This document shows, in pieces, positions 9,901 through 52,800 of a DNA stretch of 64,000 nucleotides. The notes under the pieces were generated by a model. The model was not told the origin of the DNA, did no database searches, and worked only from the letters and a program-made list of their open reading frames with translations. The DNA is from Blasia pusilla (taxonomy: Eukaryota): contig CM114271.1 of NCBI GenBank assembly GCA_050084515.1, positions 27,404,001 through 27,468,000 of the forward strand, read 5' to 3'. Position numbers and translations under genes: made by a program. How positions within the stretch are numbered: the first letter of the stretch is position 1; every line of letters starts with the position of its first letter.

Positions 9901-11449
9901 TAATTACAACGAATTCTAGCATTCGAGATGAGAAAAAGGCCCTTGTGCTGTACAATGTATAGATCTTTAATATATTCTGAATGGATATTCCACTTTGTAG
10001 TTCAGATATATGCATATTGTTCTAGTTTAATAGCCAATGGGATGAAAAAATAAACTACATCGAAAACTTCCATGAATTACTTTTAAGAGTAAATGAAAAT
10101 ATATATGACGTTATTTCATTTAAAAAATGAAAATCAATCCCCTTGATAATGATTTGAAAATACAAAATACTAATCGATTGATTTTGTATACCAGTAGCAG
10201 CGAGTACCTTACTAATAAGTAGTAGTCGCTAGAAGCGAGATAGATGTGGAATCACCCTTCCTGGGTTTGGATTAGTAATTGTAATGCTGGTTCGTTGCAC
10301 AGGTCCGCAAACGGGAGGTTTTCGATGGCAGGAAGGATTGAAAAGAAGGAAGGACCCCCGCAAAGTTCGAATTCAGACTCCCGAAGTGCTACCCATTCGT
10401 GTCCCGGTGCGAATCGAAAGAAATTGATTTTTAGTAACGGGTTTATGGGACTAAAAATCCATTCTTCTTATTGACATGTTTCTCGATTGTGAGCACAGTT
10501 AGCTCTAGAGGTGTAGGCTTCACAGAAGCCGACATGTGTTTTGTCTGCATTAACGGCCGTGAGGTCCGCTTCTTGCAATGCTTTTCTGGACCGCAGATGT
10601 GCTTTGATTTCCATTCGTGTCCTGGGTTCCGGCCTCTTGCGGTCTATTTTTTGGTTCTCCATGCCCCCTCTTTTTATCGTGATGGGTTTCCATCCTTTTT
10701 CTACATATATATTTAGAGAGACTTCAGTCGCTGAGTGGCGCCCTTCGACGCTGCAATGCAGCTAGGGCCTAGAAAAAGAGGGAGCGAGAGATATCCATGC
10801 GGTACTCTTTTCGTCTTGAGAGCCGGGTCCACACTAACGATTTAACGACCCATGATGGTTCTGGCTATTGATACAGATTTCATCACTGATATGGATCAAA
10901 GGTTGCGATTTTCTGTTTGTTTCTTTGTTAATTTGGCACTATCTCCGTGCGTTCGTATCTGCAGATATTGCGGAGTCACAGTTAATTCCGATGACGAACA
11001 TTTGTTAGGCTTTCTTTGGTTCGGCGATCTTTCCGTGCTTTCGAGATATATATAGATAGTGCCTCCGAAGGTATTATTATCCTCGTTTGTTTGGACGCTT
11101 TATTTTGTGTCCAAACAAAATAACGTTCGTTTGTCTGTTTCTTTGTTCGGCTCGGAACTCCTTCCGCATTTCCGAGCTTTCGATCTATAATTAGCGATGG
11201 ATTTGATCCGGTTTGTTTTCCTTTGGCACTGCTTCTGTTCCTTTCATAGATATGTATATATATACCATTGTTCTGTACCTTCGCTGACGGTGGCTTGTTT
11301 GGTTGCCAGTTTAGCACTCCTTCCAAATTTGCGCTTTCCACAAATTTAGATAGCTGGATCCACACCTACAATTTGGATTCTGCCGGTCTGTTTAGGGTTT
11401 CGCTTGTTTGTTTCTGGAGAAATAGGCGCATTCGCAGAGCTCTGCACTC

Positions 11450-15335: not shown

Positions 15336-15344
15336 TCCACAATC

Positions 15345-15720
15345 TTGGAAAAATGAGCACAACCCTCTCCGCTAGTCTATCCACCCCAAAATGATCTCGT
15401 GAAGTGGTGTAGTGGTCGATGAGTGTCTGATCACACAAAAACTCCCCATGAAACTCGGTATCCTTGTCTATCAACACCTCAACTAGTATGCCATAATGAC
15501 TCAGCAATCGATCTAAGAAGGCATACGCTACTCCCTCACTCGCTTTATCAGGAAATGCAACCAACTCTATCCACTTGAAAAAGTGCTCTACCATCACCAA
15601 CACATAATGATCATGGCGCTCTATAAAAGGTAAGGGTCTTGCAAAATCCAAACTCCATCTATAACCTAAACCCATGATCGGAAATGGATAAAACTATGGA
15701 GTTAGAGCATTGAATGATGT
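15345..15720 (-). mobile_element. Inverted Gypsy integrase fragment of the same family as 23958-24400
   Basis: MGLGYRWSLDF..P.....H.YVLVMVEHF.KWIELVAFPDKASEGVAYAFLDR is nearly identical to the integrase of the large element. Confidence 0.9.
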
Positions 15721-15944
15721 CGAGGATGACCTGCTCAAGCTATAGATAACCTGAGAGAGCAAGTTTTCCCTTTGTTTCAGCTCATTTGGAGCCATATATA
15801 TATACTTACTATTTCGAGTAAGTTTCCATATTTAATATAATTGACTTTTCACTTTGGTAAGTGGCCCTTGACCCACTACAACAAGTCAAGAGCTACGGAG
15901 GTGACTTGCAAGCATAGGTTACCGTGGAGAGAGTTTAGGAGAGG
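15721..15944 (+). mobile_element. Older family-A LTR fragment, interrupted by the 15945-26891 insertion; it resumes at 26892-26952
   Basis: Matches the family-A LTR sequence (CCTGAGAGAGCAAGTT...CATAGGTTACCG). It stops at GAGG and continues GAGGGAAGGG..ATATCTCCAAGAGAG after the insertion. Confidence 0.8.
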
Positions 15945-16825
15945 TGTCACGACTGTTAGGATAGATTGGTGGGATCTGGTAGAGCGTCTCCACGAGTAGT
16001 GGAGGACAAGCCCAGGAGGTGGAGGATGACCTGTTGAGGCCCCGGGAAATCTAAGAGAGCAGGAAACCTGAGAGAGCAAGTTTCCCCTTCGTTTGGGCTC
16101 ATTTGGAGCCATATGGAGAAACTTACTATTTCGGGTAAGTTTCCATATTGGGGATAGTTGACTTTACACTTTGGGAAGTGTCCCTTGACCCGTTACAGCA
16201 GGTCAAGAGCCAAGGAGGTGACCTGCGAGCATAGGTTACCGTTGAGAGGGCTTGGGAGAGGGAAGGGGGTACACCTCCAAGAGAGAGAGTTTGAGAGCTC
16301 ATTCTCTCGCTGTTTTTGCATGTTGAGGACCGTGTTCCCCGTTCAGCGGCTCATGGGAGTGCTCACCGCAGCAAGGGCTGCTTTGATTATTCTTTGCATT
16401 TGCCGATTTTTTGTGTGGAAGAGTGGCGCGCGGAAGCATTGCCCAATTTCTGATAGGGATTGATTATGGGGGCAGGTTGCCCCATGCCGATGCTCTCGGG
16501 TGCACCATGTAGCTCGCTGATTTGTATCTTTACACGTTTTACATTTTCTTTGCGAGAAATCAGCGCGGAAGCGCTGCCGAATTTTGTGTAGGAGAAAGAG
16601 ACATTGGGATTTACAACAGTCCCCTTCAATTTTTACTGGAATGTCCAATTCTAAATATTTTTTGACGTTATCATAGATCGTGAATCTGTGCACGCTGTGC
16701 AATAAATAGTGCACAATTTGGAGTTGGGAGCAAAAAGTTATGGTCAATCTTGCAAAACTGCCATTGCTAGGCAATTTTTAGGGTTAAATTGTTCAAACCC
16801 TAAACCAGCCGCCACGCCGTCATAG

Positions 16826-16925
16826 TCACCGTCAACGGTCAACTTTCACCATCAATAGTCAACTGTCACTGTCACCAGTCGGCCGTCACCATCAACGGTC
16901 AACCATCACCGTCAACGGTCCACCA
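16826..16925. repeat. Degenerate ~21-bp tandem repeat (CACCGTCAACGGTCAAC-like) in the Gypsy 5' leader
   Basis: About 5 imperfect copies read directly. Confidence 0.7.
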
Positions 16926-18183
16926 TCCGTTGTCCACCCTTTGGTTGCCATTGCCGCCATTATGGAGTGGAGGGTCTTCCACGACGTTCGTTGATTCTCT
17001 GACTTGCGTCGCCACCAAGTACTTTGTTTTGGTCGCCATTGTCATCGCAATTTCGTCATCAACCAGTGATGGCAGATGACCTCCGATTATGGTGTTTGAG
17101 TTTTGATTTCATGCTACTATGTTGTGATTGGTAGCCGCTCGACGACGATCGAGTATCGTGCCGTGACGCCCGTAGCCGCAACGCGCCGTGCCGCTCGTGG
17201 CCGCACCGCACCGTCTCGATCGTGGAACCGCTCCTTCACTAAGGAGCAGAGCGTGTGAATTGCTGATTGAGGAGGTTATGCCGTCGAGTGCCGCACCCGA
17301 TTCCCGAGTGCCTTGCTGTTTGTAGCCATTCCGTGCCGCTAGTGCCGCACCGGACTGCTCGACCTGCACTGTACATCGAAGAGGTTAAGCAACATCTGTA
17401 CGAGAGGAGTACGACTTGCTGATTGGAGGAGTTATGTTCACGACCGAGTTGGGGTTGAGATTTTCAGTTTCCGAGGAGCGACATCGACATTATTGTCAAG
17501 TTACCCATTCTGTTCTCCTACTCTACACGTGTGAGGGATTTCCGAATATTGGGAAGTTATTTGGGATATTGGGTTTCGTGTTGATGCTCGATGATATTGG
17601 AGCATCGATGATGTATGGGTTTAGGGGACATAGACCTGTGTGGGATGTCCGGAGTTGAGGGTAGGTTGTCGATGAGATGATAGCCTGGTCGATTTGCCGC
17701 ACCATGGCGCGTGTTGCCGCACGTTACACGTCTCGGGGAGGGAGAGTGTAGATCGAGTGCCGCATGTTTGGGATGAGTGATTGAGGGATTACTCGCGAGG
17801 TTGAGAGTGATCGAGTGAGAGGAGCACGAGGGTCATCATGGCGTCCGTTCGGGACTTTGAGAGGTGAGGTGGTGAACCCGAGAGTAGCTCTAGAGGTTTT
17901 TCACATAGTGGCGTGAGGTTCCGAGGGTCTCCATGTGAGGAACCACCTTGACCTCCTTGTGTGTCATCGTCAGACGAGAGGGAGGGTGTAGAGGAGTTTG
18001 TGAGCACATCGCCACACATTGTGAGTTGTCGAGATGGATGGTCGGGGTATAGGACCACGTAGGTTTTTAGGTGCAGTAGGCACAATTGAGTTGCACAATT
18101 TCATAGCATAGTTTAGGAGTTGGTGCGACTCCCAGCGGGCCACGAACTCTATAGAGTTCAACCCATTTACAACATGCAACGGT

Positions 18184-19080
18184 ATGTTTGAGCATTTAGA
18201 AGGGGCGCCAATGGATGATTACCATGAGTTCTCGAAGAGATATGCACGTGAGATCGAGGCGTGGAGGCTCTACTATGACCCACATTATGTGTCATGGACG
18301 GAGTCGTTCCCTGATGAGGAGGAGGAGTCAGGAGAGGCTACTTCCTCTTCCACTAGTGACATTTTAGGAGGGGTAGGAGGGGTCACTCGCACTGGAGCAA
18401 TTGCACCGTCTAGTCGGGTTTGTCCCAAGTTCAACCCTGTGGTTGAGTTCTTTGCTAAGTTGAGGGCGAGCTACCAAGGGGTACGGACGGAGAAGTTGCG
18501 GAGCATCCATGACTTCTAGAGGCGCCCAGGTGAGAGTTTGCGTGAGGCTTACACTCGCTTGCGCCGGTTGATCAACATCACTCAGAGGATGACAGAGGCT
18601 AAGGCTATCTAGGCATAGTACGCGATGTTGGACCGGACCCTGCGGACACGGGTGCGGGAGGGTGTGCTTCTTATGAACACCTCCCCTACATTGAGAGATG
18701 TTTTTAGGACCGCCGAGAACATTGAGCGCAACATGGCAGAGGAGAGCGTAGCCACCATGGGTTGTGGGCGAGAGTAGTCACGATTGGCTGCATTACCTGT
18801 GCAACAACGTGGACTCCGAGATAGGTCGATTGTGGCACCACGAGCTCAGGGAGGATAGTGGGAGGTCGTGCCACAGAGACTTGTGCCTTCTTATGCGGCT
18901 CAGCAGCAGCTGCCTACTACTTCTAGTTGGTCATGTGGTGGAGCCCATCATTAGCGCGATTGCACTTGTCAGGGTTATGGACGTGTGCCTCAGCATGGAG
19001 GAGGAGATGGTGCTGCACCAAGAGATTATCAATGTGATTATTGTCAGAGGTATGGTCATACATGCGCCAGGTGTTTCAGT
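18184..19080 (+). pseudogene. Gypsy gag remnant with two CCHC-type zinc knuckles
   Basis: FFAKLRASYQGVRTEKLRSIHDF*RRPGESLREAYTRLRRLI resembles a retrotransposon gag; knuckle-like CGGAHH*RDC and CDYCQRYGHTCARC. Multiple stops. Confidence 0.7.
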
Positions 19081-19959
19081 TTACATGATGAGTTACGTTC
19101 GGACTGAGGGCCAAAGAGGGCACTAGAGTGAGTAGCCGGTCCGGGTGGGCCTAGAGATCGTGCACCAGGTGGTCCCGTTGGGAGATGAGGAGCTCAAGTT
19201 GTCCCACAGGTTGATGGAGCTACCCGTGGAGGAGGTAGAGTACCACCACCTAGACGCGCCCAGGAAGACGTTGGACGTGAGGTTGGGATGGTTGCTTAGA
19301 TATAGCAGCTACAAGAGCAAATTGCAACTAAGGCATTGAGGTTACCCGATGCCGGATCCGTGGCATCGACATCATATGGAGCAAAGATATGGAGGATCCT
19401 GGTTGGATGTGCGGGGTTGTCCACATGGAGGCCGCCGCAATTATGACACGTGGAGCAGTAGCAGAGTTGGATCCACAGCGAGAGGAAGCCAGAAAATAGA
19501 CTAGGCTTCCTCAGTCTTTCACGTTGTCCGAAGCGATGAGGATCCCATCAATGGATCCTCATCAAAGTTTCTGGAGAGTTGGTGATGTTGTTGGTGTGCA
19601 GGCACGGAAGGCAATGGGAGATGCGAGTGCAATGAATCCTATTGTTGATGCTCAAGAGGGGCATGTGTCGAGCACGTTGTTGGGGGCGGCCACCGTTGTG
19701 TACCGCACTCCTTTATTTTCTGCTTCCGATGTTATAACGTTAGGGGGTACGCCCGCCGAGGCTTTTCGGCTGGCCGCTTCACTATATTAGCGCGGAGTTG
19801 GAGTTCCTACATCACGTTCAGAGGTGATTGTAGAGGAGGTGATCGACTTGCCTTTGGAGCGGATGCTCGGGCCGTCCACGTCAGATTCATGGCAGGCTAC
19901 GGCTGCTAGGATGGTGGAGATGCCCGCTAGACCTGCGATAGAGCGTGCCATGGCTTCTC

Positions 19960-20410
19960 CTAGTGTTGTGTTGTTGGATAACCGAGGAGAGGTCTTCTAG
20001 TTGGTGAGTCTCGGAGGTAGAGCTTTTAGTCCGCAACGCGTCTTGTTGGATTCAAGAGCGCAATCCCTGATGTTGGGGAAAGGGTCATTCAGAGGATTGG
20101 GCTTGACAAGAGCCGATGTGGAACGTTGTCCATTCCGGATACAGACATCCTTGGGTGGAGTGAGAACTACATAGTATATCACCCGACAGGAGGTCGAGGT
20201 GAGGATTTTCCTGGGACATCCTGCAGATGAGTCCGTGGTGCGAGCCAAGGCGATAGTGACTGATGCAGAGTCCTATGACGTCTTGGTTGGTAAAGCAGTG
20301 TTATACCCGATGGGATTTTCCCTGGTTTACTGGGAGGATTCAGCGTCCTACAGACCAGGATGGCAGTCAGGTGATGGGCGCCTTAGCTCATTACCCATTT
20401 GATTCATATG
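19960..20410 (+). pseudogene. Gypsy aspartic protease remnant
   Basis: VLLDSRAQ at 20040-20063 (decayed LDSGA active site) and downstream YDVLVG. Confidence 0.75.
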
Positions 20411-20744
20411 TGTAGTGATCGAGCGACGGCAAGGAGAGGTCGTGACCTTAGCAGGATTTAGCAGTGCCATCACTTGGCCTAGTGATTTGATCAAGGGACA
20501 TTTCCATGCAGAGGATACTCCTGTTCCTGACATTTCTATGGAGAGGAGTGTTATGGTAGCCGCATCATTCTGTGGAGGAGAGGTGCTGTTGTGGGGCTCG
20601 ACTAAGGAGCTTCGACGATTGGCACATGAGCACGTGCAAAACGCGTGGAGCAAGGCATTTGCACCGGAGCGTGACAGGTCTGAGGAACCCGAGATAGCAA
20701 GGAGTGCTACGATGACACCCTTGGATATCACACCCATTATGTGA

Positions 20745-21710
20745 TGTATCCGGGAGCAGGGTATTCGAGTGTTAGATCTCTTTGGAGGGATTAGCACCGG
20801 GTTAGCTGCTGTTTTGCAAGCAGGAGTGTGAGTGCAACAATACCTGTATGTGGAGAGTGATGATGTTGTGAGGCGCGTCTCACTACAACATGTGGCGCAA
20901 TTACGCCTATGTTTTCTTGACTTATTGTCTGCGTCTGCGGTACAAGGGTACCAGAGTTCCCTACCGAGGGATATTTCGTTGCTGGAGGCGCAGGACTTAG
21001 AGTGGGTAGGGACCATTGATTTGGTCATTGCGGGTTGGCCATATCAGGGCCAATCGAGTGTTGGACGAGGCAGCAGGTTGGCTGACACTTGGTCCAGGTT
21101 TTTTTGGGAGATGTTGAGGGTCTTACGGTAGTTGTAGGAGCACCACTCTCATTCTCCAGCCTACATTCTGGAGAATGTGCCGATCTTAGGAGACTCCAGA
21201 TCACGGGTGGTGACAAGTGCTCATCAGGTGCGTGCCTGGATTGGCATAGCAGTGTTCTTGGATGCGGCGAGTGCAGGTTCTAGAGCCCATTGCCCGCATA
21301 TATGGTGGACCAACTTGGTGCCCCATGCGGTGTTACGGAGGATGTATGCAAGAGTGGAGCGCCCCTCACATTTTTAGTGGATTCCATTCTGGATCCAGAT
21401 CATCGATCACAGGTAGTGAGGCCCAATGATCGACCACCGTTGACTGTGGTCAACAGGGTAGGTAGGCCACGGGCAGCCTTGCCCACGTTTGTGAGTTTTC
21501 CCGCTTCCTATGCATACCAGAAGGTCGGTCCTCGTTTGGTTTGGGATGACCAGGTTCAGCGGTTGGTGGAGCCCAACACCGACAAGAGAGAGCGAGCGAT
21601 GGGATTTCCACTGGACTAACAACAGTACCGTCAATGTCAGAGGCATCACAACGGCATGTCTTGGGTCAGCGATGGACATGAACTGCTTGACATGGATCCT
21701 CAACTTGGGA
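20745..21710 (+). pseudogene. C5 DNA cytosine methyltransferase domain inside the Gypsy pol (inactivated copy)
   Basis: Motifs in canonical order: I VLDLFGGISTG (20769), II YLYVE, IV DLVIAGWPYQGQS (PCQ changed to PYQ at 21042), VI YILENV (21171), VIII DAASAGSRAHCPHIWWTN, IX RERAMGF, X LGSAMD. No introns; several stops and frameshifts. Confidence 0.9.
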
Positions 21711-22049
21711 GTGGCTGAGCAACGCCGTATGAGATCGCGACAGATCACAGCAGTTGCATTGGTGAGCCCCATGCCTACCGAGACGGTGGAGGCAGTGGTT
21801 GGGGGCAAGACCCGAGGAGATCTACACACCAGGGGAGATCATGAGAGAGACCCTTGGACTTCTTGGGATGTTTTACAGGTATACCAAGAGATGATAGCCA
21901 TGGCATCGAGTGTGGTTCTGGGCACTGCACGTGGAGGAGATCAAAGTTTGCAGTTGCATGCAGGAGAGTGGCCGAGTGTTGTTGTTTGAGACGGGGTTGC
22001 ACCATAACAACCACCGATACCTACGCCAAAGAGTCCTACCGTAGTCACG

Positions 22050-23500
22050 ATGGAGACTTGGGAGCCAGATATGGGCCCTAAGTTGACAGGAGGAGAGTGG
22101 GGCCGGATACATCAATTCCTCAAGAGTTATAAGAGCTGCTTTGCGTTTAGCATGGAGGATTTGGGTATGGAGAAGGGACTGGGGATCCGCATTGAGTTGT
22201 GGAGTGATACGCCAATCTTCCGAAGACCCTACAGGTATAGTGATATGGAGAGGGACCTGATTCAGAGTAGGAGCGAGGACTTGGTTGGAGCAGGACTATT
22301 GGAGATGTCGCATGGGGAGTATGCATCTGCCACTGTCATGCCCGCCAAGAAGGATGTGCATGGCAACTGGACGGATAGGCAGATGTGTGGGGATTACCGA
22401 CCTATCAATCGGCAGACGAAGTTCGATAGGTATGCCATGCCCACCCCTGAGGAGATCTTTAAGGTGATTGGTCATGCAAAGATCTTTAGTTCATTGGATT
22501 TGCAAGCCGGATACCATGAGCTGCCTATCAGATTGGAGGACAGGAAGAAGACAAAATTTTGGGGCATCGATCCTCACGAGAAGGATTGTTTGTACCAGTG
22601 GCAATTCTTACCATTTGGGTTAAAGAACGCCCCGACTGAGTTTCAAAGGGTCATGGATAGGATCTTGGCTGGTGTGGATTTTGCTAGGAGTTATATTGAT
22701 GACATCGTAGTCTTTAGCGCCACAGTTGAAGAGCATGAGCAACATCTAGAGGAGGTGTTTCGACGATTGCAATTACAAGGGTTGAAGCTACATCCAGGAA
22801 AGTGCAAGTTCTTCTACGACTAGATTGAGTACTTGGGTCATACGATATACCCAAGGGGCCTTGGTATTCAGAAGACGAAGGTAGAGGCTATCTCAGGCAT
22901 TCCATGCCCTACAGATGTGAGTCGTGTTCGCGCATTCATGGGATTGGCGAACTTCTATCCGCGGTATGTCAAGGGATTTAGTTTGATTGCGAAGCCGCTA
23001 ACCTTGCTGACCAAGGTGGATCACGAGTGGCACTGGGGGGATGAGCACGAGCAAGCATTTCAGTTACTCAAGGACAGGTTGACATCCGTGCCCATCTCGA
23101 GGAGACCGATCAGGGGGCGTCCTTTCCAATTGCACATAGATTGGAGCATGTTGAGGCTTGGAGCGGTGCTCACCCAGCATGATGATGAGGGTAGAGAGTT
23201 CATGGTGGCTTACGCTAGCCGTTCAAACTACGTTGTAGAGGCAAAGTAAAGCTCGTATGAGGGTGAGTGCTTGGTTGTAGTGTGGGCCGTCGCGCATTTC
23301 AGGTGTTACTTATTCGGCAACCCCTTTACCATCATCACTGATCATCAACCACTGAAGTGGTTGATAGAGTCCGACAAGCTTACAGGGAAGCTTGCGAGAT
23401 GGGCTCTGTTGTTGTAGGAGTATGATTTTTAGGTGGTACATAGACTTGGAACGCTCAACCAGGATGCAGATGGGTTGAGTCGTAACCCATGCCCGAGTCA
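22050..23500 (+). pseudogene. Gypsy reverse transcriptase and RNase H
   Basis: MCGDYRPIN, SSLDLQAGYHEL, LPFGLKNAP, YIDD (~22692), KLHPGKCKF; RNase H LHIDWS..LGAVL, VAYASR, TIITDHQPLKWL, QDADGLSR. Confidence 0.95.
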
Positions 23501-23699
23501 GCGAGATGCGACTGGAGCTCGATGGCATGGAGAGAGTGATGAGGAGTCAGTGCCAGGATGGCACGCGTCACCCTATTTAGGCATGTTGGCTATGGAGAGC
23601 CAAAGTGTGGAGACTTCGATGGCGAGGTCTAGTGGAGTGTCCTTGGATCCTGAGGCCAGTGAGGAGACGACAGGTGGCTGAGATATTCATGATGATGGA

Positions 23700-24920
23700 G
23701 TAGTCTTGGAGTACCTTCGTATTGGTAGCGTTGCGAGCATTGTGGGTGCTAGAGAGCGGGATTGGATCCTACAGCGGGCCAGACGGTTCCGTTGGGAGGG
23801 GACACATGTTTTGAGGGTTTGGGAGGATGGTAGAGTACGCGTAGTGCCCCATCCTTTGCAGAGAGCACGACTAGTGCAGCATGCCCACGAGGAGTTGGGT
23901 CACTTTGGGATGAAGCGGACGTACAACTTGCTCCAGATTCAGTAATGGTGGCGAGGCATGTGGACTGACGTTCAACAGTTTGTTGCTAGGTGCATGGTGT
24001 GTGATCGGGTTCGAGCATCGTTCAATGCTCCGACTCCACAGTTGCATCCATTATTGATCATGGGCTTAGGGTATAGATGGAGTTTGGATTTTTTAGGACC
24101 TTTTCGTTTGACGGAGCGTCACAGTCGTTATGTGTTGGTGATGGTCGAGCACTTCTCGAAGTGGATCGAGTTGGTTGCATTTCCTGACAAAGCGAGTGAG
24201 GGAGTAGCTTATGCCTTCCTTGATAGAATGCTGAGTCATTGTGGTGCACCGGCTGAGATGTTGAAAAACCAGGGTATCAAGTTTCACGGTGAGTTCTAGG
24301 CCTTGTGTGATCAAGCGCTGATCGACCACCGCACGAATTCGCGAGATCATCCCGAGGAGTATGGATTAGCGGAGAGAGTTGTGCAGAAGGTGAAGAGGCG
24401 TTTACGCAAGTATGGCTTGCAGAGAGATCACCTAGGAGATTGGGACCTCCAATTTCCGTGGTTGGCGATGGGATACAGATTCAGCAGGCATGCATCCTTA
24501 GCGTCTTTTTCACCGTACTTGCTACTTTATGGCCGAGAACCAGATTTACCCTCGGCCATTCGCCAGATGCTGGTGAGATGCTGGACCTTGATGACCCAGA
24601 TATATGGATGCGACCATGTTCTCAGAGGGCTAAGTTGTTTCGGAGAGTGATGCCCATGGCGTTCAAGAACTTGGCAATTACGCAGCATCGGGATACATTG
24701 AGGTATGCGACTATTCGGGGTGGTGGTTATCGACCAACTATCCGGGGATTTCATCAGGGAGATTATGTCTACTTGCAATAGACAACACCAACGAGGTTGG
24801 ATGTGACTGCATGACGCACTATCTTGAGAGTGGATGACGTTTTTCCATCCGGTGTTCTCTTGCTAGAGGGACGCGATGGTATGGTATGGAAGGACCATGT
24901 GCATAATTGTGCGCCATGTC
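23700..24920 (+). pseudogene. Gypsy DDE integrase
   Basis: HHCC finger (HEELGHFG...CMVC), WSLDF.GP, GLAERVVQ..K..L, FSPYLLLYGREP; internal stops and frameshift. Confidence 0.93.
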
Positions 24921-24982
24921 ACCTTCCTAATATTGATGGTACAATAGATCCGAGCTCAACAGTAGTTCCTATAGGCTTGCGT

Positions 24983-25117
24983 TGTATGTTGTGTGGTTCT
25001 GCTTGTGGTGCGGCCACGATGCTAGTCTGTGATGGATGTTCGAGAGGTTGGCATATGGCATGTCTGACGCCACCTCTCACTAGGGTTCCTTGGGGACGAT
25101 GGATGTATCCCAGATGT
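24983..25117 (+). pseudogene. PHD finger at the integrase C-terminus
   Basis: CMLC...MLVCDGCSRGWHMACLTPPLTRVPWGRWMYPRC is a C4HC3 pattern with the 7th ligand changed to Tyr (TAT at 25106). Confidence 0.9.
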
Positions 25118-25772
25118 ACATAGAGGAGATACTAGGTAGGTTTTCGATTCCGACTTTTTCTGTGACATGGATGACAGGAAGGCGACTAACGCTGGGGCCA
25201 CATGAGCATCCGGCCTTTCTGCTCTTAGCGTCCTAGAGATGTATGTCGTGGTAGGTAGGGATAGATGGCTATGTGGAGTTTGAGGGACCTAACCACCAAC
25301 TAGGGGGGCGATTGGAGATATTTTGGTACTTCTCGCCTCTGTGTATGGATGCTATGAGTTAGCATGGGATCGTGTGTGTTTGTGTGTGTGTTCGATGACA
25401 ACGATGTATGTTGTGTAGCAATGTGTATGCGCACGACAGTTGTCACGACTGTTAGGATAGATCGACGAGATCTAGCAGAGCGTCTCCACGAGTAGTGGAG
25501 GACATGCCTAGGAGGTCTAGGATGACCTATTGAGGCCACGGAAAACCTGAGAGAGCAGGTTTCCCCTTCGTTTCGGCTCATTTGGAGCCATATAGAGAAA
25601 CTTACTATTTTGGGTAAGTTTCCATGTTGGGGATAGTTGACTTTCCACTTTGGGAAGTATCCCTTGACCCGCTACAATAGGTCAAGAGCCAAGGAGATGA
25701 ATTGCTAGCATAGGTTACCGTTGAAAGGGCTTGGGAAAGAGAAGGGGGTATACCTCCAAGAGAGAGAGCTTG

Positions 25773-26777
25773 TGTCGCGCCCCTATCCTCCTTGAACGTC
25801 AATCTTTAGTGTTGCGGAAGCGTACGTTCAGTAGGTCACGAACTCATCACTGATCTGCACCCAAACACGCACTCTCGTTAGTTGGGTCTGGGCCAACCAG
25901 CGGCGTTCCAACCCACCGAGTCCTCAACTCGGCGTCTCATCAAGCTCAACCTTCCTTAGTTTCTAGTTTCCAAAACATGGCAAGTCCTTCAAGACTTGGA
26001 ACAGACTTCCTGGTTAGTCCAAGGATCTGAAACGGCACTTGCGCGCCTAGCGATCCCAACTGTTCAACGGTCCTCGGGTGAGTTCCGAACCGAGACCCAA
26101 GTAATTGAGTCGCGGGGTGGAATCCAAGAGGGACGTCTAAAATCGCCTCAATGGACTTGGTGCAGGTTTTCCAACCCAACCCCCAAACTCGCGTTCCGTT
26201 CCATGCCCTTGAGCCGCCCCGCGGCGCCCAAAGTGGGGTTTGGGTTCCAAGCACTCTCGGAGACCTTCCCCCTTACTAGTACTTCTGGGGTTCTCCAATA
26301 ACCCCTCCCCTTTGGGAAAAGAGGGTCGGGCCCTTCATTGTGGCCCTCAACCCGACTCCACTTACAGTCGTTTTCGGGTTGTATCTCGGCCGTTGCTTAT
26401 GTGTTTGCAGCGATCTTTGGTGCGTTTGGACCGGCTCTCCATAAGCTTTCCAACACACCTTATTCGTTCCAAACGCATCTTGGCGCTCAAAGTTATGGCC
26501 ATAAATACAGTCGGAAACTCTAAAACGCTAGTGGCGTTCCAAATCCGGATCTTTCCTTTGGCAACTCACTTCCTAGACTCGACTTCTTTCAAGTCTCATT
26601 CCGCGTTTGGTCCAGGTTTCTCAGTCGCGACCATAACACCTGAAACGCGACTCCTCGCTCGCGTCTCGTCTCTTGTCTCCTCTTTGAGACAACTCCAACG
26701 CGCAAACCATCTTAGCGTGAGCCCGCTAATGTTCCGATGTTCCGCTTGGCACTTGTTTGGTCATGAGGGTTGCGACA
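25773..26777. mobile_element. Solo LTR (~1.0 kb) of an unrelated family nested in the 3' LTR of the Gypsy element
   Basis: Termini TGTCGCGCCC...GGGTTGCGACA; flanks GCTTG/ACTTG (5-bp TSD, one mismatch). The host LTR is continuous across it. Confidence 0.8.
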
Positions 26778-29700
26778 ACTTGAGAGCTCCTCTGTGTATG
26801 GATGCCATGCCTTAGCATGGGATCCTGTGTGGTTGTGTGTGTGTTCGATGACAACGATGTATGTTGTGTAGCGATGTGTATGCGCACAATAGAGGGAAGG
26901 GAATATATCTCCAAGAGAGGGAGCTTGAGAGCTCATTCTTTCTTTGTTGAACGTCTCGGATAGAGGTTCTCCGTTGTATGTGCTTGTGGAACTTCAGAAG
27001 ACTTCCTCCAAAGACATGAACCCTAAACATTTTATCTTCAAGATCCTACTATGATGATCGTTGGTGACAGATAGAGACTCGATTAGTGGCAAAAGAGGAT
27101 GATGTGGGGTCCAGATTGAAATGGACTTAAGTTATAATTTTATTTTCCACCATGACTTCAAGGAAGTCGGAAACCCACAAATGTTTTAATTCACCAAGAA
27201 TGTCAAATTTTCTTTAAAACACTCTATGCTATAAAAAAACCTGCCACCTTTCTCACCTTTCTATACCTGAAAGAAATGAAAATTTCAAGGCTTCAGTTGT
27301 GAACAATGAAAAAGAAACAAGAATGCACATTTCATTTCCAAAGGGTAGTGATTATAGATGGTGCGAAACTCCAAGAAAACTCCTAACTCCAAAGACTCAT
27401 AGTGAGGAAGAGTTTAGATCACACTCCTTAAGTACAGGTCTTGAATCGGCTCAAGGAATTTTCCTCCTCACCTTCAATCTCGGCTCCAATGCTCCTCGAT
27501 TGGAAAAATAAGTTGAAGGTGGATTGAGAATTTCCTTTGTCAATTGCAAGAAGTAATGCATGACACAAGCTTGAGGACGGAATCAAGAAAAGAAGGATGC
27601 ATGTACGCAATTTGCGGGTAAGGGGGAATGCAAGAATCGTGAGCACATACTTTCAATGCAAAGCATTATGTCTCTCACACGAAAGCCACTTCGTGTGTGG
27701 GAAGCTAAAGAATTTTCTGTGTGGGTGTGGGTTGCATTTCATAATGGAGTGTTATGCATCCCCCAACCTTGAACAAGGCCAATCCTCCTTCAAACCCTAA
27801 TCCCCACACAAGAAACTACCAAACGTCGATGATCATACTTGGACCCTCAAAGTTGGATGTTAGAGGTTGGAGCTTGCCATTAGCTATGGGGCACGGATCA
27901 ACTTGACAACACGCTACCATTGGCTACAATTTTAAGGGAAAAGGGAATAAAAAAGCCCAACCTCATGCCGACGATCAGTTTGGGGATACCATGGAGATAA
28001 TTGGGGATGAGTACATGTCATGATCCCATGATGACACAAACAACCCCACATTCACAAGGACATCCATTCCCATGCGAATGGTCTTCGAATGCGGATGTTC
28101 GGGGAGACAAAATCGAGAATTTCCGATTTATTTTGAAATTACCTATCAAAAACCTATTGGATCTATATAATTAATCCCGGTTAGGAAACCGGGATTACTG
28201 ATCGGAAAGTCCCAGCAACGTACCGGCTCCCCGAACCCTGCCAGGGATAGCCGGTCCGGAAGACCGGGATCGCCGGGGACGAAAAGAATCTTACAAATTT
28301 GCCGAGTTCATATTTGAGGCGTGAGAACGTGTCGGGGGCGGGGTAATGGGACGGCGGTTCCAAAGAACTGGGAACCCCGAGTAAAAGGTCCGGTTTCTCG
28401 GAATATCGTCCTCCTTTCCAGTGTGGATCGAAATTCGGATGGGGATCTGAATGTTCTAGAAGAGTCTGAAAGGCGGGACATCCATAGCTGGCCTTCACTG
28501 TGGCGAGACGACTGAGTCACGACTTAACAATTTTAGAGCGCCTCCCTGCGAAGTTCGATGATGAGTCCAGTGCAAGGAGCTGGATACGAAGCACGACTCT
28601 CTCCGCTGAGCCCACTGCACGACAGCAGCCCTGGTTCTTCTGCATTCTCATGCGTGTTTGGTTGTTTCCTTTTTGTTTTCTTCTTTTCTGGGGAGCGTTT
28701 TCCTTGCATCCGCTCTGATGCATCTGAACCCTCTGGAATCAAGGATCAACCGGGACGATCACCATCTTCTGAAGTTCTGGTCATACAGCCGAAACATCCT
28801 TCTGGTCACTGACTGGCTAGAGATTCTAGAAGGTTACAGACTTGCTCCGCAATTGCCTGCTCGTGCAGTGATTGCTGACAGAATGCGACAGACAGGCAGG
28901 TTCCGACTCCCGAGTCCCGAGCGAGCGGAGGTTTGCAACTTTGCAAGTTTGCACTGGGCTGGCCGCTGGTAACGAGGATCGAGTTGCCCGGATCCTGAAG
29001 AATCCTTATGTGTGTCTGCCATGCGATCCAAGCAAACCGACCAAAGTTGGCCGAACGTGACTCTGGCCACTACAAAGGGCTTAGATTTCTATGCACATGC
29101 GTTTTAGTATAATACTAGGGTACAGCACGGGAGCGAAGGGATTCATTCAAAATTCTTTCTTTGCTGCCCGAAATATGGAAGTTTCCACGTGGCACCAAAA
29201 GATAATTGCCACGCAGAGTTTTTATGATGCCCAATCTGCGGCTCAATCAGCTGAATGTGCCGCACGATCCACACAGTTTTATCATGTGGAACAGGTTCAA
29301 GAGATATCTCCGGAGGATGTCCATCGCAGGAATCACGGGCGTCGGGAGGATTCATCCGTATCAATCTATTCGGGTCCATGGAACTGAATTGACGAATAGA
29401 ATCTACCGTTGACAATCCCCAGGGTACTATATCGATCCCTCACCACATTCTTCGTTAATGGTCAAAAGGCTACCCCGCTCTGCCAGTGCCAGGGTGCCTC
29501 CACATTCTGCTGCAATCGCTTTACGTGTGGACCCTTGAATGATAAAAGCTGCTACTTATATTCTTGAGAATGTTCTTCTGCTTAGAAATTTGAGTGGGTA
29601 CCGAATGATAACTCGACACTCAGCATGGAAATTCTTTCGGGGCGTCACTTACCGAAATTTCGAAAGTCGTTCCTTCTCCATTATCGCAGTTCTCCTCCTT

Positions 29701-49800: not shown

Positions 49801-52800
49801 GTTGAAAGTAGTGGAATTGAAGTCTTACCATACCGGTTGCAGCTTCAATCTGCAGAAGATCTACAACTTCAGCACGGAGCTAATCATCAGATAGATACTT
49901 TTACCAAACTTCTGGAACTGGCTTCAGTGCAAGATCTCTACCTGAAACACATCAATGGGCTCATTCCCCTTGTAACTGTTGGACATGAGGAGTGGCTGGG
50001 AGCTTCCCCAGGGAGATCACTATTTCAGACATTTGTGAAGAACTCTGGGATTACGGTAAGCCACTCCATAAACCTTGAGATCTCACAAGTGCAGTGCATT
50101 GTCAAATTAATAATCCACATTAGCATCTGACTTTTGAATTTGCACACTTAAATTCGTAGTTCTGTGATCATGCAGTGCAGAGAACTTGATCAGCGAGTGT
50201 AATAGCTATACGCGCACTTTTAGATTGTCAGTTCATGTCATGACACTTGCCATAACTTTCTAGGAAGGAGCGCCATCTCTCAGAGATTAATTAATAGCCT
50301 ATCCAGCCTAGAATTGATTTTACTGAAAGAGAATACCATCATTGAACTATTCTCATGTCCCTCTTTGGTCCCCACCAACAAGAATTCAGATCATTAATTA
50401 ATTCATGTGTATCTGACATGTTTTGATAACTATTACGTTTCATAGACCCTGGTTTCTTGTTGGGTGTAATCAAATTGCTGTCATTTATCACAGTTAGAGC
50501 CACGATTTCACTTCATGATGTGTTGGGTTCTTTTCATTTATTGTGGGTGATGCAGGTTGGCCCATATCTAAGTACTCTCATCAACATGTTCGAGACTTGC
50601 TTGCATCAAGACAGAGATCCTGCTCTGCGAATTAGCTTTCTGCAGGTAGTTATGGTTTAATTTGGCTTCACAATCTAATTTGGTTGTCACTATTTTGGAC
50701 TTTCTGGTATCTTGCGTAGCTTCACATCAGGGGTATGAGAAGTTCATTTATGAGACTATTGTGAGAATTGCGGAATGAATTGAAATTGCGTTTGTACTCT
50801 CTGTGTTCTCTATATTTATAGATTGAAAGCCGATACATAAGTAGTAAAGTCTGCTCTAAACTAAGAGCCGTAATCAAAAGACATGACGGTAACTGTGTCA
50901 CTTCAAAAATGTCTCATAGCTACATATCGTTTCGCAAGATGAAACGTTAGTAGCAGTAATCAATGGTCATAAACAGAACATTGATCCTAATCTAATCTAG
51001 ATCGTCCGTATGGATTGATCCGTGTGATCAATTCTTGGATCAGTACTCTAATGATTTGTTTCGCTGGACTAATTGATTTCCTACACTCCCACTCAGGGGA
51101 ACAAATCAGCCATTTTCATTACTAGTTAACCCTAGAGATTTAGTATGTTTCTGATGAGGTCTTTTCTGTAAACCCTTAGTAAAAATGTCTGCAGTCATCT
51201 CTGCTGTTGAAATATAGGTCAAAATAATTTCGCCACTTGATACTTGATCTTTGATATAGTGGTATTGAATGTCGATGTGTTTGGTGCGGTCATGATGTTT
51301 TGTAGAACTGACCAAAGCAATAGCACTCTGGTTGTCACAGAAGATCTCAGTTATCTTCTGAGCAAAACCAATTTCGTAAAGTAATCTTCTGATCCAAATA
51401 GCTTCAGTGCTAGTTTTAGTCATTGCAATGTACTCAGACTCGGTACTTGAAAGAGCAACTGACTTTTGTTTTCTACTTGCCCAACTAACTGCTCCTCCTG
51501 CAAGGAGAAAGCAAAATCCGCTAGTAGATTTTTGGGAGTCGATATTGTCTCCATAGGCAGCATCAGAATATCCTTGAAGATGAAAAGGAGTAGATGAGCG
51601 CTGATATTGGAGAAAGTAATGTTTTGTCCCTTGTAGATACCTGAAAATACTTTTGACAGCAGTCCAGTGTATAGGACCAGGATTGGTGATGAACTGTGCA
51701 ACAGTGCTAACAGAATAGGCAATATCAGGGCGAGTGCACACCATTGCCCACATTAAACTGCCTGTAGCACTTTTATAAGGAATAGAAGACATTGCTGCAA
51801 TGTCAGCAGGATGAACAGGAGATTGATCTTGACTAAGATGAAGGCCAAAATCAAAGGGAGTGGAGATAGGCTTGCAGCCCAGCATGTTGAACTGTTTGAG
51901 TTTGTTGGTGATGTAAGTCGTCTGGTTGAGCCTGATCCATCCTTGTTGTCGGTCTCGTTGGATATGAATTCCCAGAACATGATAAGCTTCACCGAGATCA
52001 GTCATTTCAAACTCTTGGCGGAGCTTGGTTTTGACAAAATTAAGCAGCGCAGAACTGGAGCTGGCGATGACAGTGTCATCCACGTAGAGAGCAAGGATCA
52101 GAAAATTGGAGTCCTTGTTCAGAATGTAAATATTAGAGTCAGCAGTGGTGCTGACAAAACCAATGTCGAGTAAAACATAGTGACATCGTTCATACCACAT
52201 ACGGGCTGATTGCTTCAAACCATAAATGGACCTTTCGAGAAGGCAGACCAAGTTATTATGGGGAACTGGCAAGCCTGGAGGAAGGGCCATGTAGATATTG
52301 TGTTGCAGGAATCCATATAGAAAAGCAGCGATTACATCTAATTGATGTAAGTCCAGGTTGAAATAAGCAGCAATAGCAATAAGAATACGAAGAGATTGAA
52401 GTTTAACAGTAGGAGAAAAGGTCTCGTCATAATCGAGATCGGGAACTTGAGTAAATCCCTTAGCAACCAGACGGGCTTTGTACTTGTGGATTGTGCCATC
52501 CACATGAGGTTTAATTTTAAAAACCAAATGGCAGCCAACTGTGCTTTGATTAGGAGGAAGGGGAACCAAAGTCCAAGCCTTCATTCTAGCCATATTCTGA
52601 AGTTCAGCAGAAATGGCAGCCTTCCAATGTGAAGAGTCAGGTCCAGAGATAGCCTGTTCATAAGATTGGGGTTCAAGAAAAGAACTAGTAGAAGAGAGCA
52701 AGGCCCAACGCTTCTCTGCAGCTCGCTTCTTGTTCTTCTCAGCTTCAATAAGTGCATCGTAATGCTCAACAGCCCGAGTAATGCGAGGACTTTTTCTTTG

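Follow-up and report, generated by a model that had tools for sequence, protein, structure and literature searches.

An old, inactivated retrotransposon copy in Blasia pusilla, very probably from a bryophyte branch of the Gypsy-DNMT3 elements: a methyltransferase ahead of a putatively leaky stop and a PHD finger behind the integrase

The stretch of DNA analysed here, called the window throughout, comprises 64,000 nucleotides of Blasia pusilla (assembly GCA_050084515.1, contig CM114271.1, positions 27,404,001 to 27,468,000, forward strand). On its plus strand, direct reading together with a blastn comparison of the window with itself delimits a single retroelement copy at 15946-26890, which opens with TGTCACGAC and holds the remains of a Gag, a protease (PR), a DNA methyltransferase (DNMT), a reverse transcriptase (RT), an RNase H (RH), an integrase (INT) and, last of all, a PHD finger. 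To judge from its relatives, it is very probably an old inactivated copy belonging to the bryophyte branch of the green-lineage Gypsy-DNMT3 retrotransposons. Where does it begin and end? The sequence just before it, 15748-15944, aligns at 85% with 16065-16261, and that just after it, 26891-26939, aligns at 88% with 16257-16305; these two flank matches, both to the element's own first repeat, A1, overlap by precisely 5 bases, and the 5 bases are AGAGG, the target-site duplication (TSD) present on both sides. The element is nested inside an older repeat of its own family. The original prediction, which had been made from the letters alone, had both the methyltransferase and the PHD finger inside one TSD-bounded element, and in this it was right, its coordinates being correct to within one base.

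The Ty3/Gypsy order of protease, RT, RNase H and integrase is present on one strand, as given by Pfam for all but the protease, which was placed by alignment to relatives, and to this are added a DDE integrase with its H2C2 zinc domain and a short TSD (AGAGG in the window, AAGG in the related locus L036). The Ty3/Gypsy-type identity that had been proposed is borne out by these three, domain order, H2C2/rve integrase and TSD; the matches to Retrotrans_gag and rve are weak, that to rve being below its Pfam cut-off. Between protease and RT lie the motifs of a cytosine-5 methyltransferase in the canonical, non-rearranged order I-IV-VI-VIII-IX-X: motif I, VLDLFGGISTGLA, at 20769-20807, motif IV, IAGWPYQGQ, at 21027-21053, motif VI, AYILENVP, at 21159-21182, motif VIII at 21276-21314, motif IX, RERAMGFP, at 21587-21610 and motif X at 21652-21695, the last two in other frames. 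Read piecewise, the region scores 19.7 bits with Pfam DNA_methylase, below the cut-off of 22 (E 6.5e-4), whereas 20403-21374 read through with X at the stops scores 25.7 bits (E 9.7e-6), above it, which is the significant profile match that the original prediction had called for. Since the best matches of the stretch among the proteins of Marchantia polymorpha reach E 2e-90 at 53% identity, chance likeness is excluded, and the predicted place of the enzyme between protease and RT stands on its motifs, on the read-through Pfam score and on the Marchantia homologues together.

Marchantia polymorpha contributes 15 of the 26 protein matches to the methyltransferase stretch of the window, and these proteins are collinear with it from Gag through protease and DNMT, with two gene models continuing into RT. 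With an intact Marchantia DNMT domain as query, 61 proteins were found, including ones from Calypogeia fissa (73%) and Sphagnum fallax (52%) and many from metagenomes. A metagenome scan yielded 339 encoded relatives among at least 599 pattern matches, with 80 kept as loci, and a profile of the domain, run against 1.84 billion proteins, matched 499 representative ones at E<=1e-30; among ten profile matches whose identity was looked up, one came from the chlorophyte Scenedesmus and is a 'pol' protein. A tree of the domain (39 rows; the short or partial rows P0038, P0026, P0013, L066 and L046 dropped) sets the window within a well-supported clade of 11 that includes Marchantia and Calypogeia (100/99), and the nearest relatives of the window element are, by this tree, liverwort sequences. 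The intact PCQ and ENV motifs that had been envisaged do exist in the relatives, where the alignment gives PCQ in 14 of 14, ENV and FxGxG invariant and motif I intact, but not in the window copy, which has PYQ. By the Nei-Gojobori method over 196 codons of the DNMT core, the ratio of nonsynonymous to synonymous change (dN/dS) among the intact L021, L024 and L027 is 0.114, 0.116 and 0.089, and for RT, L021 against L024, it is 0.046; these values indicate purifying selection on the DNMT of intact copies. Methyltransferase and PHD finger are accordingly family features, not a one-off capture: other copies carry the DNMT in frame with its motifs whole and a dN/dS of 0.09-0.12, and a single or neutral acquisition, the outcome that had been set down as fatal to the idea, is not what was seen.

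To which class does the enzyme belong? Compared with the sequences of the PDB, the family profile finds DNMT3A (4.8e-18), DNMT3C (6e-17) and DNMT3B (6e-16) well ahead of tobacco DRM (2e-9), DRM2 (7e-6), M.HhaI (1e-5) and DNMT2 (about 1e-3). An AlphaFold model of the L021 domain has a mean predicted local distance difference test score of 65.8, with the core near 90, and its top Foldseek matches are all DNMT3A/B/C (E about 1e-15, template modelling score 0.72-0.79 on the target). Profile and model thus both indicate a DNMT3-type methyltransferase. On its origin the ESM Atlas, queried with the Marchantia domain, was uninformative, returning only generic DNA_methylase clusters of Streptophyta and phage.

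Some observations on the wider set of relatives may be recorded here. P0254 (Marchantia Mp_7g09570), P0007 and P0015 are gene models stitched from element pieces, P0254 joining protease and DNMT fragments to INT-PHD, and about 15 Marchantia gene models carry DNMT domains of such elements, which could inflate counts of host DNMT genes. A sister group from metagenomes, P0022, P0023, P0024 and their relatives, has the order RT-RH-DNMT-INT-PHD in one open reading frame (ORF) of about 2000 residues, with about 300 further residues after the PHD finger in which DPFxGxG-like and SPPW-like motifs can be picked out by eye. That tail looks like an S-adenosylmethionine-dependent amino-methyltransferase; it has no Pfam match, and the Atlas connects it no more than weakly (0.87) with N6_Mtase and MTS clusters of phage. 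This group may be related to the LTR (long terminal repeat) elements carrying an adenine methyltransferase, DAM, of bioRxiv 10.64898/2026.05.21.726589.

The PHD finger at the end of the integrase scores 34.1 bits with Pfam PF00628, against a cut-off of 24 (E 2.7e-8, 24983-25117), and is the last domain before the stop. The C4HC3 finger that had been read there is upheld by score and terminal position but not in its full set of ligands, the seventh being Tyr in the window copy. The INT-PHD part is 71-78% identical to the Marchantia gene model Mp_7g09570, and with the INT-PHD of an intact relative as query 266 proteins were found; among the best 120 of these 266 matches, 111 of 114 new ORF2-type proteins have a full C4HC3, mostly within 15 residues of the C-terminus. 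The same search also matches proteins of Haematococcus, Volvox, Tetrabaena, Pleodorina and Chromochloris. Among solved fingers, the closest are those of PHF12 (E 2.3e-14), CHD4, the first finger of KDM5 proteins (Lid, KDM5B, KDM5A), PHF21A, KAT6A, DPF3, ATXR5, AIRE, BAZ2 and UHRF1, most of which we take to be readers of the unmodified H3 tail (H3K4me0) rather than of H3K4me3. Two other domains were looked for with Pfam in the window and in six relatives: no chromodomain was matched, as a chromovirus would have, and no tyrosine recombinase, as a DIRS element would have, the latter alongside the presence of a TSD. Among green algae, REM1 (Perez-Alegre 2005) is said to be a Gypsy element bearing a PHD finger.

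Is everything from protease to PHD finger decoded as one ORF? The original prediction had supposed so, and in intact relatives it is not the case: there the DNMT forms the C-terminus of a Gag-PR-DNMT protein, a conserved in-frame stop follows, and then comes RT-RH-INT-PHD. In L021 the first ORF has 1369 residues (with CCHC, protease, motif I, PCQ and ENV) and is separated by a single TAG from a second of 1047 residues (with RT, H2C2 and PHD) in the same frame, and L024 is built likewise; many database proteins end just past the DNMT, and ORF2-type proteins of about 1040 residues begin just after it. Expression of gag-pol by readthrough of a stop is familiar from gammaretroviruses. Directly behind the stop L021 reads CAG TTA and L024 reads CAA TCA, both of which fit CAR YYA, the consensus that follows leaky stops of plant viruses of the tobacco mosaic virus kind (type I, UAG CAR YYA; PMC2754532). 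The stop context was tallied in 52 loci having both a DNMT end and an RT start, plus the window, several of the loci being the same sequence from related samples. Strict CAR YYA follows the stop in three loci, L021, L024 and L027, the homologous stop there reading TAG-CAGTTA or TAG-CAATCA, and also in the window (TAA CAA CCA); 21 loci have TAG/TAA-CAACCC and one has CAACTC, 6 of another clade have TAG/TAA-CTCACC or CTTACC, 6 have no stop between DNMT and RT, and in 15 the site is too decayed to read. With CAA CC(C/A), CAG UUA and CAA UCA taken as one group, 25 of the 52 loci, besides the window, have such a stop. The stop between ORF1 and ORF2 would, from these surroundings, be of the leaky type. 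In a distant clade (L050, L057, L058, L064, L069 and L075, at 25-30% identity to the PR-DNMT of the window) there is no stop between DNMT and RT, and L050 has one between protease and DNMT instead, so the point at which the ORF is broken differs between clades.

The ends of the element are unusual for its class. In this family they are split direct repeats, A1 - coding - polypurine tract - B1 A2 B2, with TG...CA termini and a target duplication of 4-5 bp. In the window the A pair (15939-16293 against 25435-25772) is 86.2% identical over 355 nt and the B pair (25336-25434 against 26789-26887) 93.9%. L036 shows the layout whole, with A1 at 1676-2017, B1 at 10238-10350, A2 at 10350-10691 and B2 at 10693-10805, termini TGTCATGAC...CGCACGACA, AAGG on both sides and the B1|A2 junction ATGACA-GC-TGTCAT. 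When 34 loci of at least 9 kb were surveyed for repeats, 7 had a long-range direct pair, and 4 of these 7, namely L036, L050, L057 and L073, have the split layout. The two identical LTRs of Ty3/Gypsy elements are lacking, the repeats being split and the polypurine-tract-like motif preceding B1 and not a terminal repeat; in all five elements aligned (the window, L036, L050, L057 and L073) the G-run and GA before B1 are invariant, and among the same number of elements no block conserved after A1, as a primer-binding site would be, was found. An ordinary LTR made of A+B or B+A was considered and rejected: the TSD and the continuity of the older repeat set the ends at the start of A1 and the end of B2, and B1 is internal, after the polypurine tract. 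A plus-strand primer site away from the ends of the integrated DNA fits the linear intermediate of the textbooks poorly, and replication is therefore likely to pass through a circular intermediate that is opened at the B|A junction. No repeats were found in the intact contigs L021 and L024, as these probably end inside the element, and no terminal repeats in L009. In all five split-repeat elements the two A copies agree less well (85-92%) than the two B copies (94-95%); equal decay of the two pairs would be expected if both were identical at insertion.

The A2 end and the B2 start of the window copy have been replaced by about 1 kb that is foreign to the family, over which RNA depth is near 0 with both sides covered; contigs of source-species DNA join 25763 to 26922. 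This segment, 25773-26788, has very high word depth in the source-species DNA contigs, its ORF of 200 residues has no Pfam match, and it is probably another repeat family. The coordinates are collected in Table 1.

Table 1. Features of the retroelement copy and its insertion site (positions in the window)
Feature	Position	Strand	Evidence
Older A repeat, first half, split by the insertion	15716-15944, resuming 26891-26967	+	self-blastn
Left TSD copy, AGAGG	15941-15945	+	direct reading
Repeat A1, 5' terminal, opens TGTCACGAC	15946-16314	+	self-blastn
Gag remnant, CCHC knuckle at 19033-19074, 12 in-frame stops	18031-19380	+	tblastn against P0081 and P0002; weak Retrotrans_gag
Protease region and linker, LLDSRAQ at 20043-20063	19386-20741	+	alignment to relatives
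Predicted DNMT3-type C5-DNA-methyltransferase, broken	20742-21700	+	Pfam PF00145, homologues, family profile
In-frame stop TAA, then CAA CCA	22005-22013	+	homologue of the conserved ORF1/ORF2 stop
Reverse transcriptase core, YIDD at 22692-22703	22386-22847	+	Pfam RVT_1, E 2.5e-29
RNase H	23118-23423	+	Pfam RT_RNaseH, E 3.3e-30
Integrase, H2C2 zinc domain and DDE core	23859-24350	+	Integrase_H2C2, E 3.5e-15; rve 30.7 bits, cut-off 32.6
C-terminal PHD finger, stop at 25121	24983-25120	+	Pfam PHD, 34.1 bits
Polypurine-tract-like motif CTAGGGGGGCGA, directly upstream of B1	25300-25311	+	alignment of 5 elements
Repeat B1	25311-25441	+	self-blastn
Repeat A2, cut short at 25772	25442-25772	+	self-blastn
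Foreign segment of about 1 kb, outside the family, replacing the A2 end and B2 start	25773-26788	+	no other match in the window
Repeat B2, 3' terminal	26789-26890	+	self-comparison
Right TSD copy, AGAGG	26891-26895	+	direct reading and self-comparison

The window copy is dead and has long been inactivated. Comparison with the closest intact relatives reveals 21 in-frame stops and 4 frame changes in ORF1, and 9 stops and 1 frame change in ORF2. In the DNMT the frame changes are near 21365, 21607 and 21665, the in-frame stops include 20829-20831, and the catalytic Cys of motif IV has become Tyr (codon TAT), so that with PYQ, stops and three frame changes no active C5-methyltransferase is encoded; the protease motif is DSR in the window and D[ST]GAQ in 12 of 12 relatives covering the region, and in the PHD finger the change of the seventh zinc ligand from Cys to Tyr (WMYPRC) leaves 7 of 8 ligands.

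Sister copies are nevertheless transcribed. Three RNA runs of the source species (X21, X22 and X23), with reads counted over 15500-27300 at a likeness of at least 85%, gave 6161, 6471 and 6491 reads, with a depth of 10-180 over 15.9-25.7 kb and of 18-40 over B2. About ten reads have their first mate on the minus strand for each one that does not, a ratio that in stranded libraries of the usual kind indicates sense RNA. Only 14-16 reads per run are at least 99% alike, most being 85-95% alike, and so it is from sister copies, not the window copy, that this RNA comes. The reads differ from the window at three of its lesions: an extra G after 21373 is present in 28 of 29, 20 of 24 and 31 of 41 reads of the three runs, an extra C after 21607 in 27 of 44, 25 of 50 and 36 of 75, and C for T at 20829 in 53 of 55 (X21), 34 of 34 (X22) and 40 of 44 (X23) reads with the first mate on the minus strand. 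Transcribed copies are in consequence without two frame changes and one stop of the window copy. Differences between reads and window are mostly transitions (in X21 A>G 289, C>T 297, G>A 290 and T>C 247, with 47-77 per transversion class). Depth is higher over ORF2, which is more conserved, so that more reads there pass the 85% threshold. Source-species DNA contigs and RNA reads cover the element throughout. Reads joining 22167 to 23244, and so skipping 1076 nt of RT-RNase H, occur in all three runs (14, 21 and 9 reads); the ends of this joint are TG..CA and not splice-like, no DNA contig shows it, and its origin may be a transcribed copy with an internal deletion, or else template switching.

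The neighbourhood is rich in related debris, with at least 5 remnants of the Gypsy-DNMT family within the window. On the minus strand, and so in opposite orientation, 15343-15723 holds part of the integrase of a related element; it adjoins the older A repeat and is 79.5% identical in DNA to 24011-24384. Two remnants on the minus strand, 32646-31998 and 63998-63678, each hold just A and B, some 150 nt apart, without coding sequence or a B ahead of the A, and look like products of recombination between A1 and A2, the equivalent of solo LTRs. A Copia-type element on the minus strand, 51106-56071, has long open frames (RVT_2 at E 1.6e-63 in an ORF of 700 residues; Retrotran_gag_2, Pol_BBD and gag_pre-integrs in one of 608) and gives the impression of a much younger insertion than the Gypsy copy. 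Over 16001-26000 the coding strand of the Gypsy element shows a strongly positive GC skew, +0.14 to +0.24, compared with about 0 elsewhere in the window.

To our knowledge, the only Gypsy-type example of such a methyltransferase in print is from a charophyte alga. DNMT3-carrying Gypsy elements were described in Klebsormidium nitens as KnitGypsy-Dnmt3 (de Mendoza et al. 2018, PMC5890265), and the element in Blasia pusilla appears to be a land-plant member of that kind, its layout and enzyme matching the published description. Shared with KnitGypsy-Dnmt3 are an intronless, non-rearranged DNMT3-related methyltransferase inside a Gypsy coding region, repeats in the order A-coding-B-A-B 'as in DIRS' with Gypsy domain composition (legend of Fig. 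4), and conserved key residues under purifying selection, with Ka/Ks <0.2 there and 0.09-0.12 in intact relatives here (PMC5890265). The host differs, being a land plant, with liverworts as the closest named sequences and the family also in a moss; and the main text on KnitGypsy-Dnmt3, figure 4c and supplements aside, has 'PHD' 0 times and no mention of a stop between DNMT and RT (PMC5890265). Klebsormidium sequences were absent from the matches of the protein, exhaustive profile and cluster searches, so kinship is judged by the published description. Whether the family had been described, which the original prediction left open, has a divided answer: the kind is in print for Klebsormidium (PMC5890265), but in the literature searched, supplements and figures excepted, nothing was found that reports these elements from liverworts or mosses, the combination of PHD finger and DNMT, or the DNMT/RT stop. 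Nor was any mention found there of six Marchantia gene ids of these ORFs, and the portions consulted of PMC5784723, PMC12344493 and PMC11982613 hold nothing on these bryophyte elements; DNMT3 members embedded in retrotransposons are mentioned in PMC12344493.

Other systems share one or another of these features. The dinoflagellate SymbioDIRS-Dnmt3 and SymbioLINE-Dnmt are likewise retrotransposons with a C5-methyltransferase, and SymbioDIRS-Dnmt3 has A-coding-B-A-B repeats and a DNMT3-type enzyme that was shown to methylate CG in yeast (PMC5890265). However, the dinoflagellate elements use a tyrosine recombinase or the endonuclease of long interspersed nuclear elements (LINEs), in contrast to the DDE integrase (H2C2 and rve) and TSD of the window element; with DIRS-like elements in general only the repeat layout is common. 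PHD fingers are known in retrotransposons (PMC6673714; PMC9940879). In the green lineage the Chlamydomonas element Gypsy-7a_cRei combines one with a Gypsy integrase, but no methyltransferase is named for it and the PHD is listed before INT, whereas in the window element it comes last (PMC9940879). Chromoviruses too have a histone-tail reader at the C-terminus of the integrase, theirs being a chromodomain that directs integration to heterochromatin (PMC6673714), where the window family has a PHD finger. EpiLTRs and DAM-LTRs are LTR elements that also combine methyltransferases with a chromatin reader; their DNMT, however, groups next to DNMT4, an adenine methyltransferase and a chromodomain are present as well, and their authors regard the acquisition as distinct from that of streptophyte Gypsy-DNMT3 (bioRxiv 10.64898/2026.05.21.726589). 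The ORF layout also resembles that of viruses with leaky stops, tobacco mosaic virus with its type I context among them (PMC2754532), in which a single in-frame stop parts a product made in quantity from an enzyme module made less often. They differ from the family in that its break comes after protease and DNMT, not after Gag, and that CAA CCC is the prevailing context in the window's clade.

What might such an element do with its methyltransferase? Most ribosomes would stop after it, giving abundant Gag-PR-DNMT, and rare readthrough would give Gag-PR-DNMT-RT-RH-INT-PHD. With Gag-PR-DNMT as the main product, the enzyme would therefore be built into the particle at Gag-like amounts, and freed there by the protease. 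It would then methylate newly made cDNA before or at integration, while the PHD finger of the integrase would tether integration to silent chromatin unmethylated at H3K4, and a new copy would arrive already resembling resident, methylated repeat DNA. The idea of a writer and reader in one element, put forward in the original prediction, is a reasonable one that the ORF layout sharpens. Taken as a whole, identity, anatomy and mechanism together, this is the best explanation, with a probability of roughly 0.55; the specific mechanism of readthrough, packaged DNMT acting on cDNA and PHD-guided integration is held tentatively, with the odds somewhat against it.

Several points weigh against it. 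Readthrough is read from the context of the stop, and in the 21 loci with CAA CCC, which are most of the window's clade, the final base departs from CAR YYA; another clade has the CTCACC or CTTACC context, and the 6 loci mentioned have no stop there. The low dN/dS values come from intact copies that are related to one another, L021, L024 and L027, and for two of the three values dS is 1.3-1.4, near saturation; the median pairwise value over all copies is 0.435 (981 pairs), as most copies have decayed neutrally since insertion. Counts of loci overstate independence, since many metagenome contigs are near-identical and from related samples. The comparison of lesions in transcribed copies covered 20829, 21373 and 21607, with the motif IV codon outside it; the nesting of the element in a family repeat was seen a single time; and likeness of sequence to fingers taken as H3K4me0 readers does not fix the specificity of the PHD finger. 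In addition, in the one activity test in print, the Klebsormidium DNMT, expressed in isolation, did not methylate DNA in yeast, a result that its authors consider inconclusive as human DNMT3B failed too (PMC5890265).

The same conserved PCQ, ENV and motif I and the same low dN/dS would also be expected if the enzyme acted on DNA for restraint, the new insertion and its surroundings being methylated and the copy silenced at once, so that copy number and harm stay low and host and element persist. This option was raised in the discussion of PMC5890265, where Klebsormidium Gypsy-DNMT copies are reported to be methylated and silent, and the heavy decay of the window copy, with differences dominated by transitions, fits long residence in methylated DNA. 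However, selection acts on the element, for which silencing itself is a cost, and silencing is incomplete, sister copies being transcribed in three RNA runs; we consider restraint improbable, and present data do not separate it from the disguise of cDNA. Somewhat less probable again is a role other than DNA methylation, in which the domain is kept for methylating RNA or for binding nucleic acid or a host factor in the particle. It lies in the Gag-protease ORF, adjoining the RNA-packaging part, and in yeast neither the Klebsormidium Gypsy DNMT nor the Symbiodinium LINE DNMT methylated DNA, RNA being suggested as a possible substrate of the LINE enzyme (PMC5890265). Against such a role stand fold and sequence, which are of DNMT3 type and not DNMT2, and the retention of the catalytic Cys in every aligned relative and of an invariant ENV Glu, which a purely structural use would not keep; the yeast result itself is, according to those who obtained it, inconclusive (PMC5890265).

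Could DNMT and PHD finger have entered by accident and simply be decaying with the copy? Both are broken in the window, with PYQ, frame changes and a lost PHD Cys, but the two domains recur at matching positions in proteins of Marchantia, Calypogeia and Sphagnum and across hundreds of contigs, catalytic motifs are intact in relatives whose intact copies show dN/dS of 0.09-0.12, and sister transcripts are free of the window lesions at the three positions compared; a neutral passenger is refuted, with scarcely any probability left to it. The still smaller chance of an artefact, a host DNMT3 gene beside or interrupted by an ordinary Gypsy element, or a chimera of assembly, draws only on the general frequency of nested elements in the window. 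It is refuted by a domain without introns that continues the reading frame of the protease and whose counterparts in independent contigs lie in collinear single ORFs, such as the Gag-PR-DNMT frame of L021, and by a unit lying whole inside one TSD with source-species DNA contigs and RNA reads across it.

For the explanation preferred here, that of an element with a packaged methyltransferase and a PHD-guided integrase, the anatomy gives concrete and cheap tests: a DNMT ending Gag-PR before a leaky-type stop, a PHD finger ending the integrase, and split repeats with TG...CA and a TSD. It also carries a warning for annotation, as some bryophyte 'DNMT3-like' and 'PHD-type' gene models are retrotransposon ORFs, and many copies in Marchantia polymorpha are annotated as 'hypothetical proteins'. 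The role of transposon-encoded DNMTs, a question since 2018, moves with this family into transformable organisms for which methylomes and chromatin maps exist. A further-reaching proposal, which we consider unlikely as it stands, is that a transcribed land-plant lineage, Marchantia included, makes a circular cDNA whose B|A junction, ...GACA-NN-TGTC..., with an internal copy at B1|A2, would be opened by the DDE integrase, the circle having been methylated beforehand through the dosage of DNMT that a leaky stop provides and being guided by the PHD finger into chromatin unmethylated at H3K4, as a self-contained writer-reader system. If that were true, new copies would enter the genome already marked as old heterochromatin.

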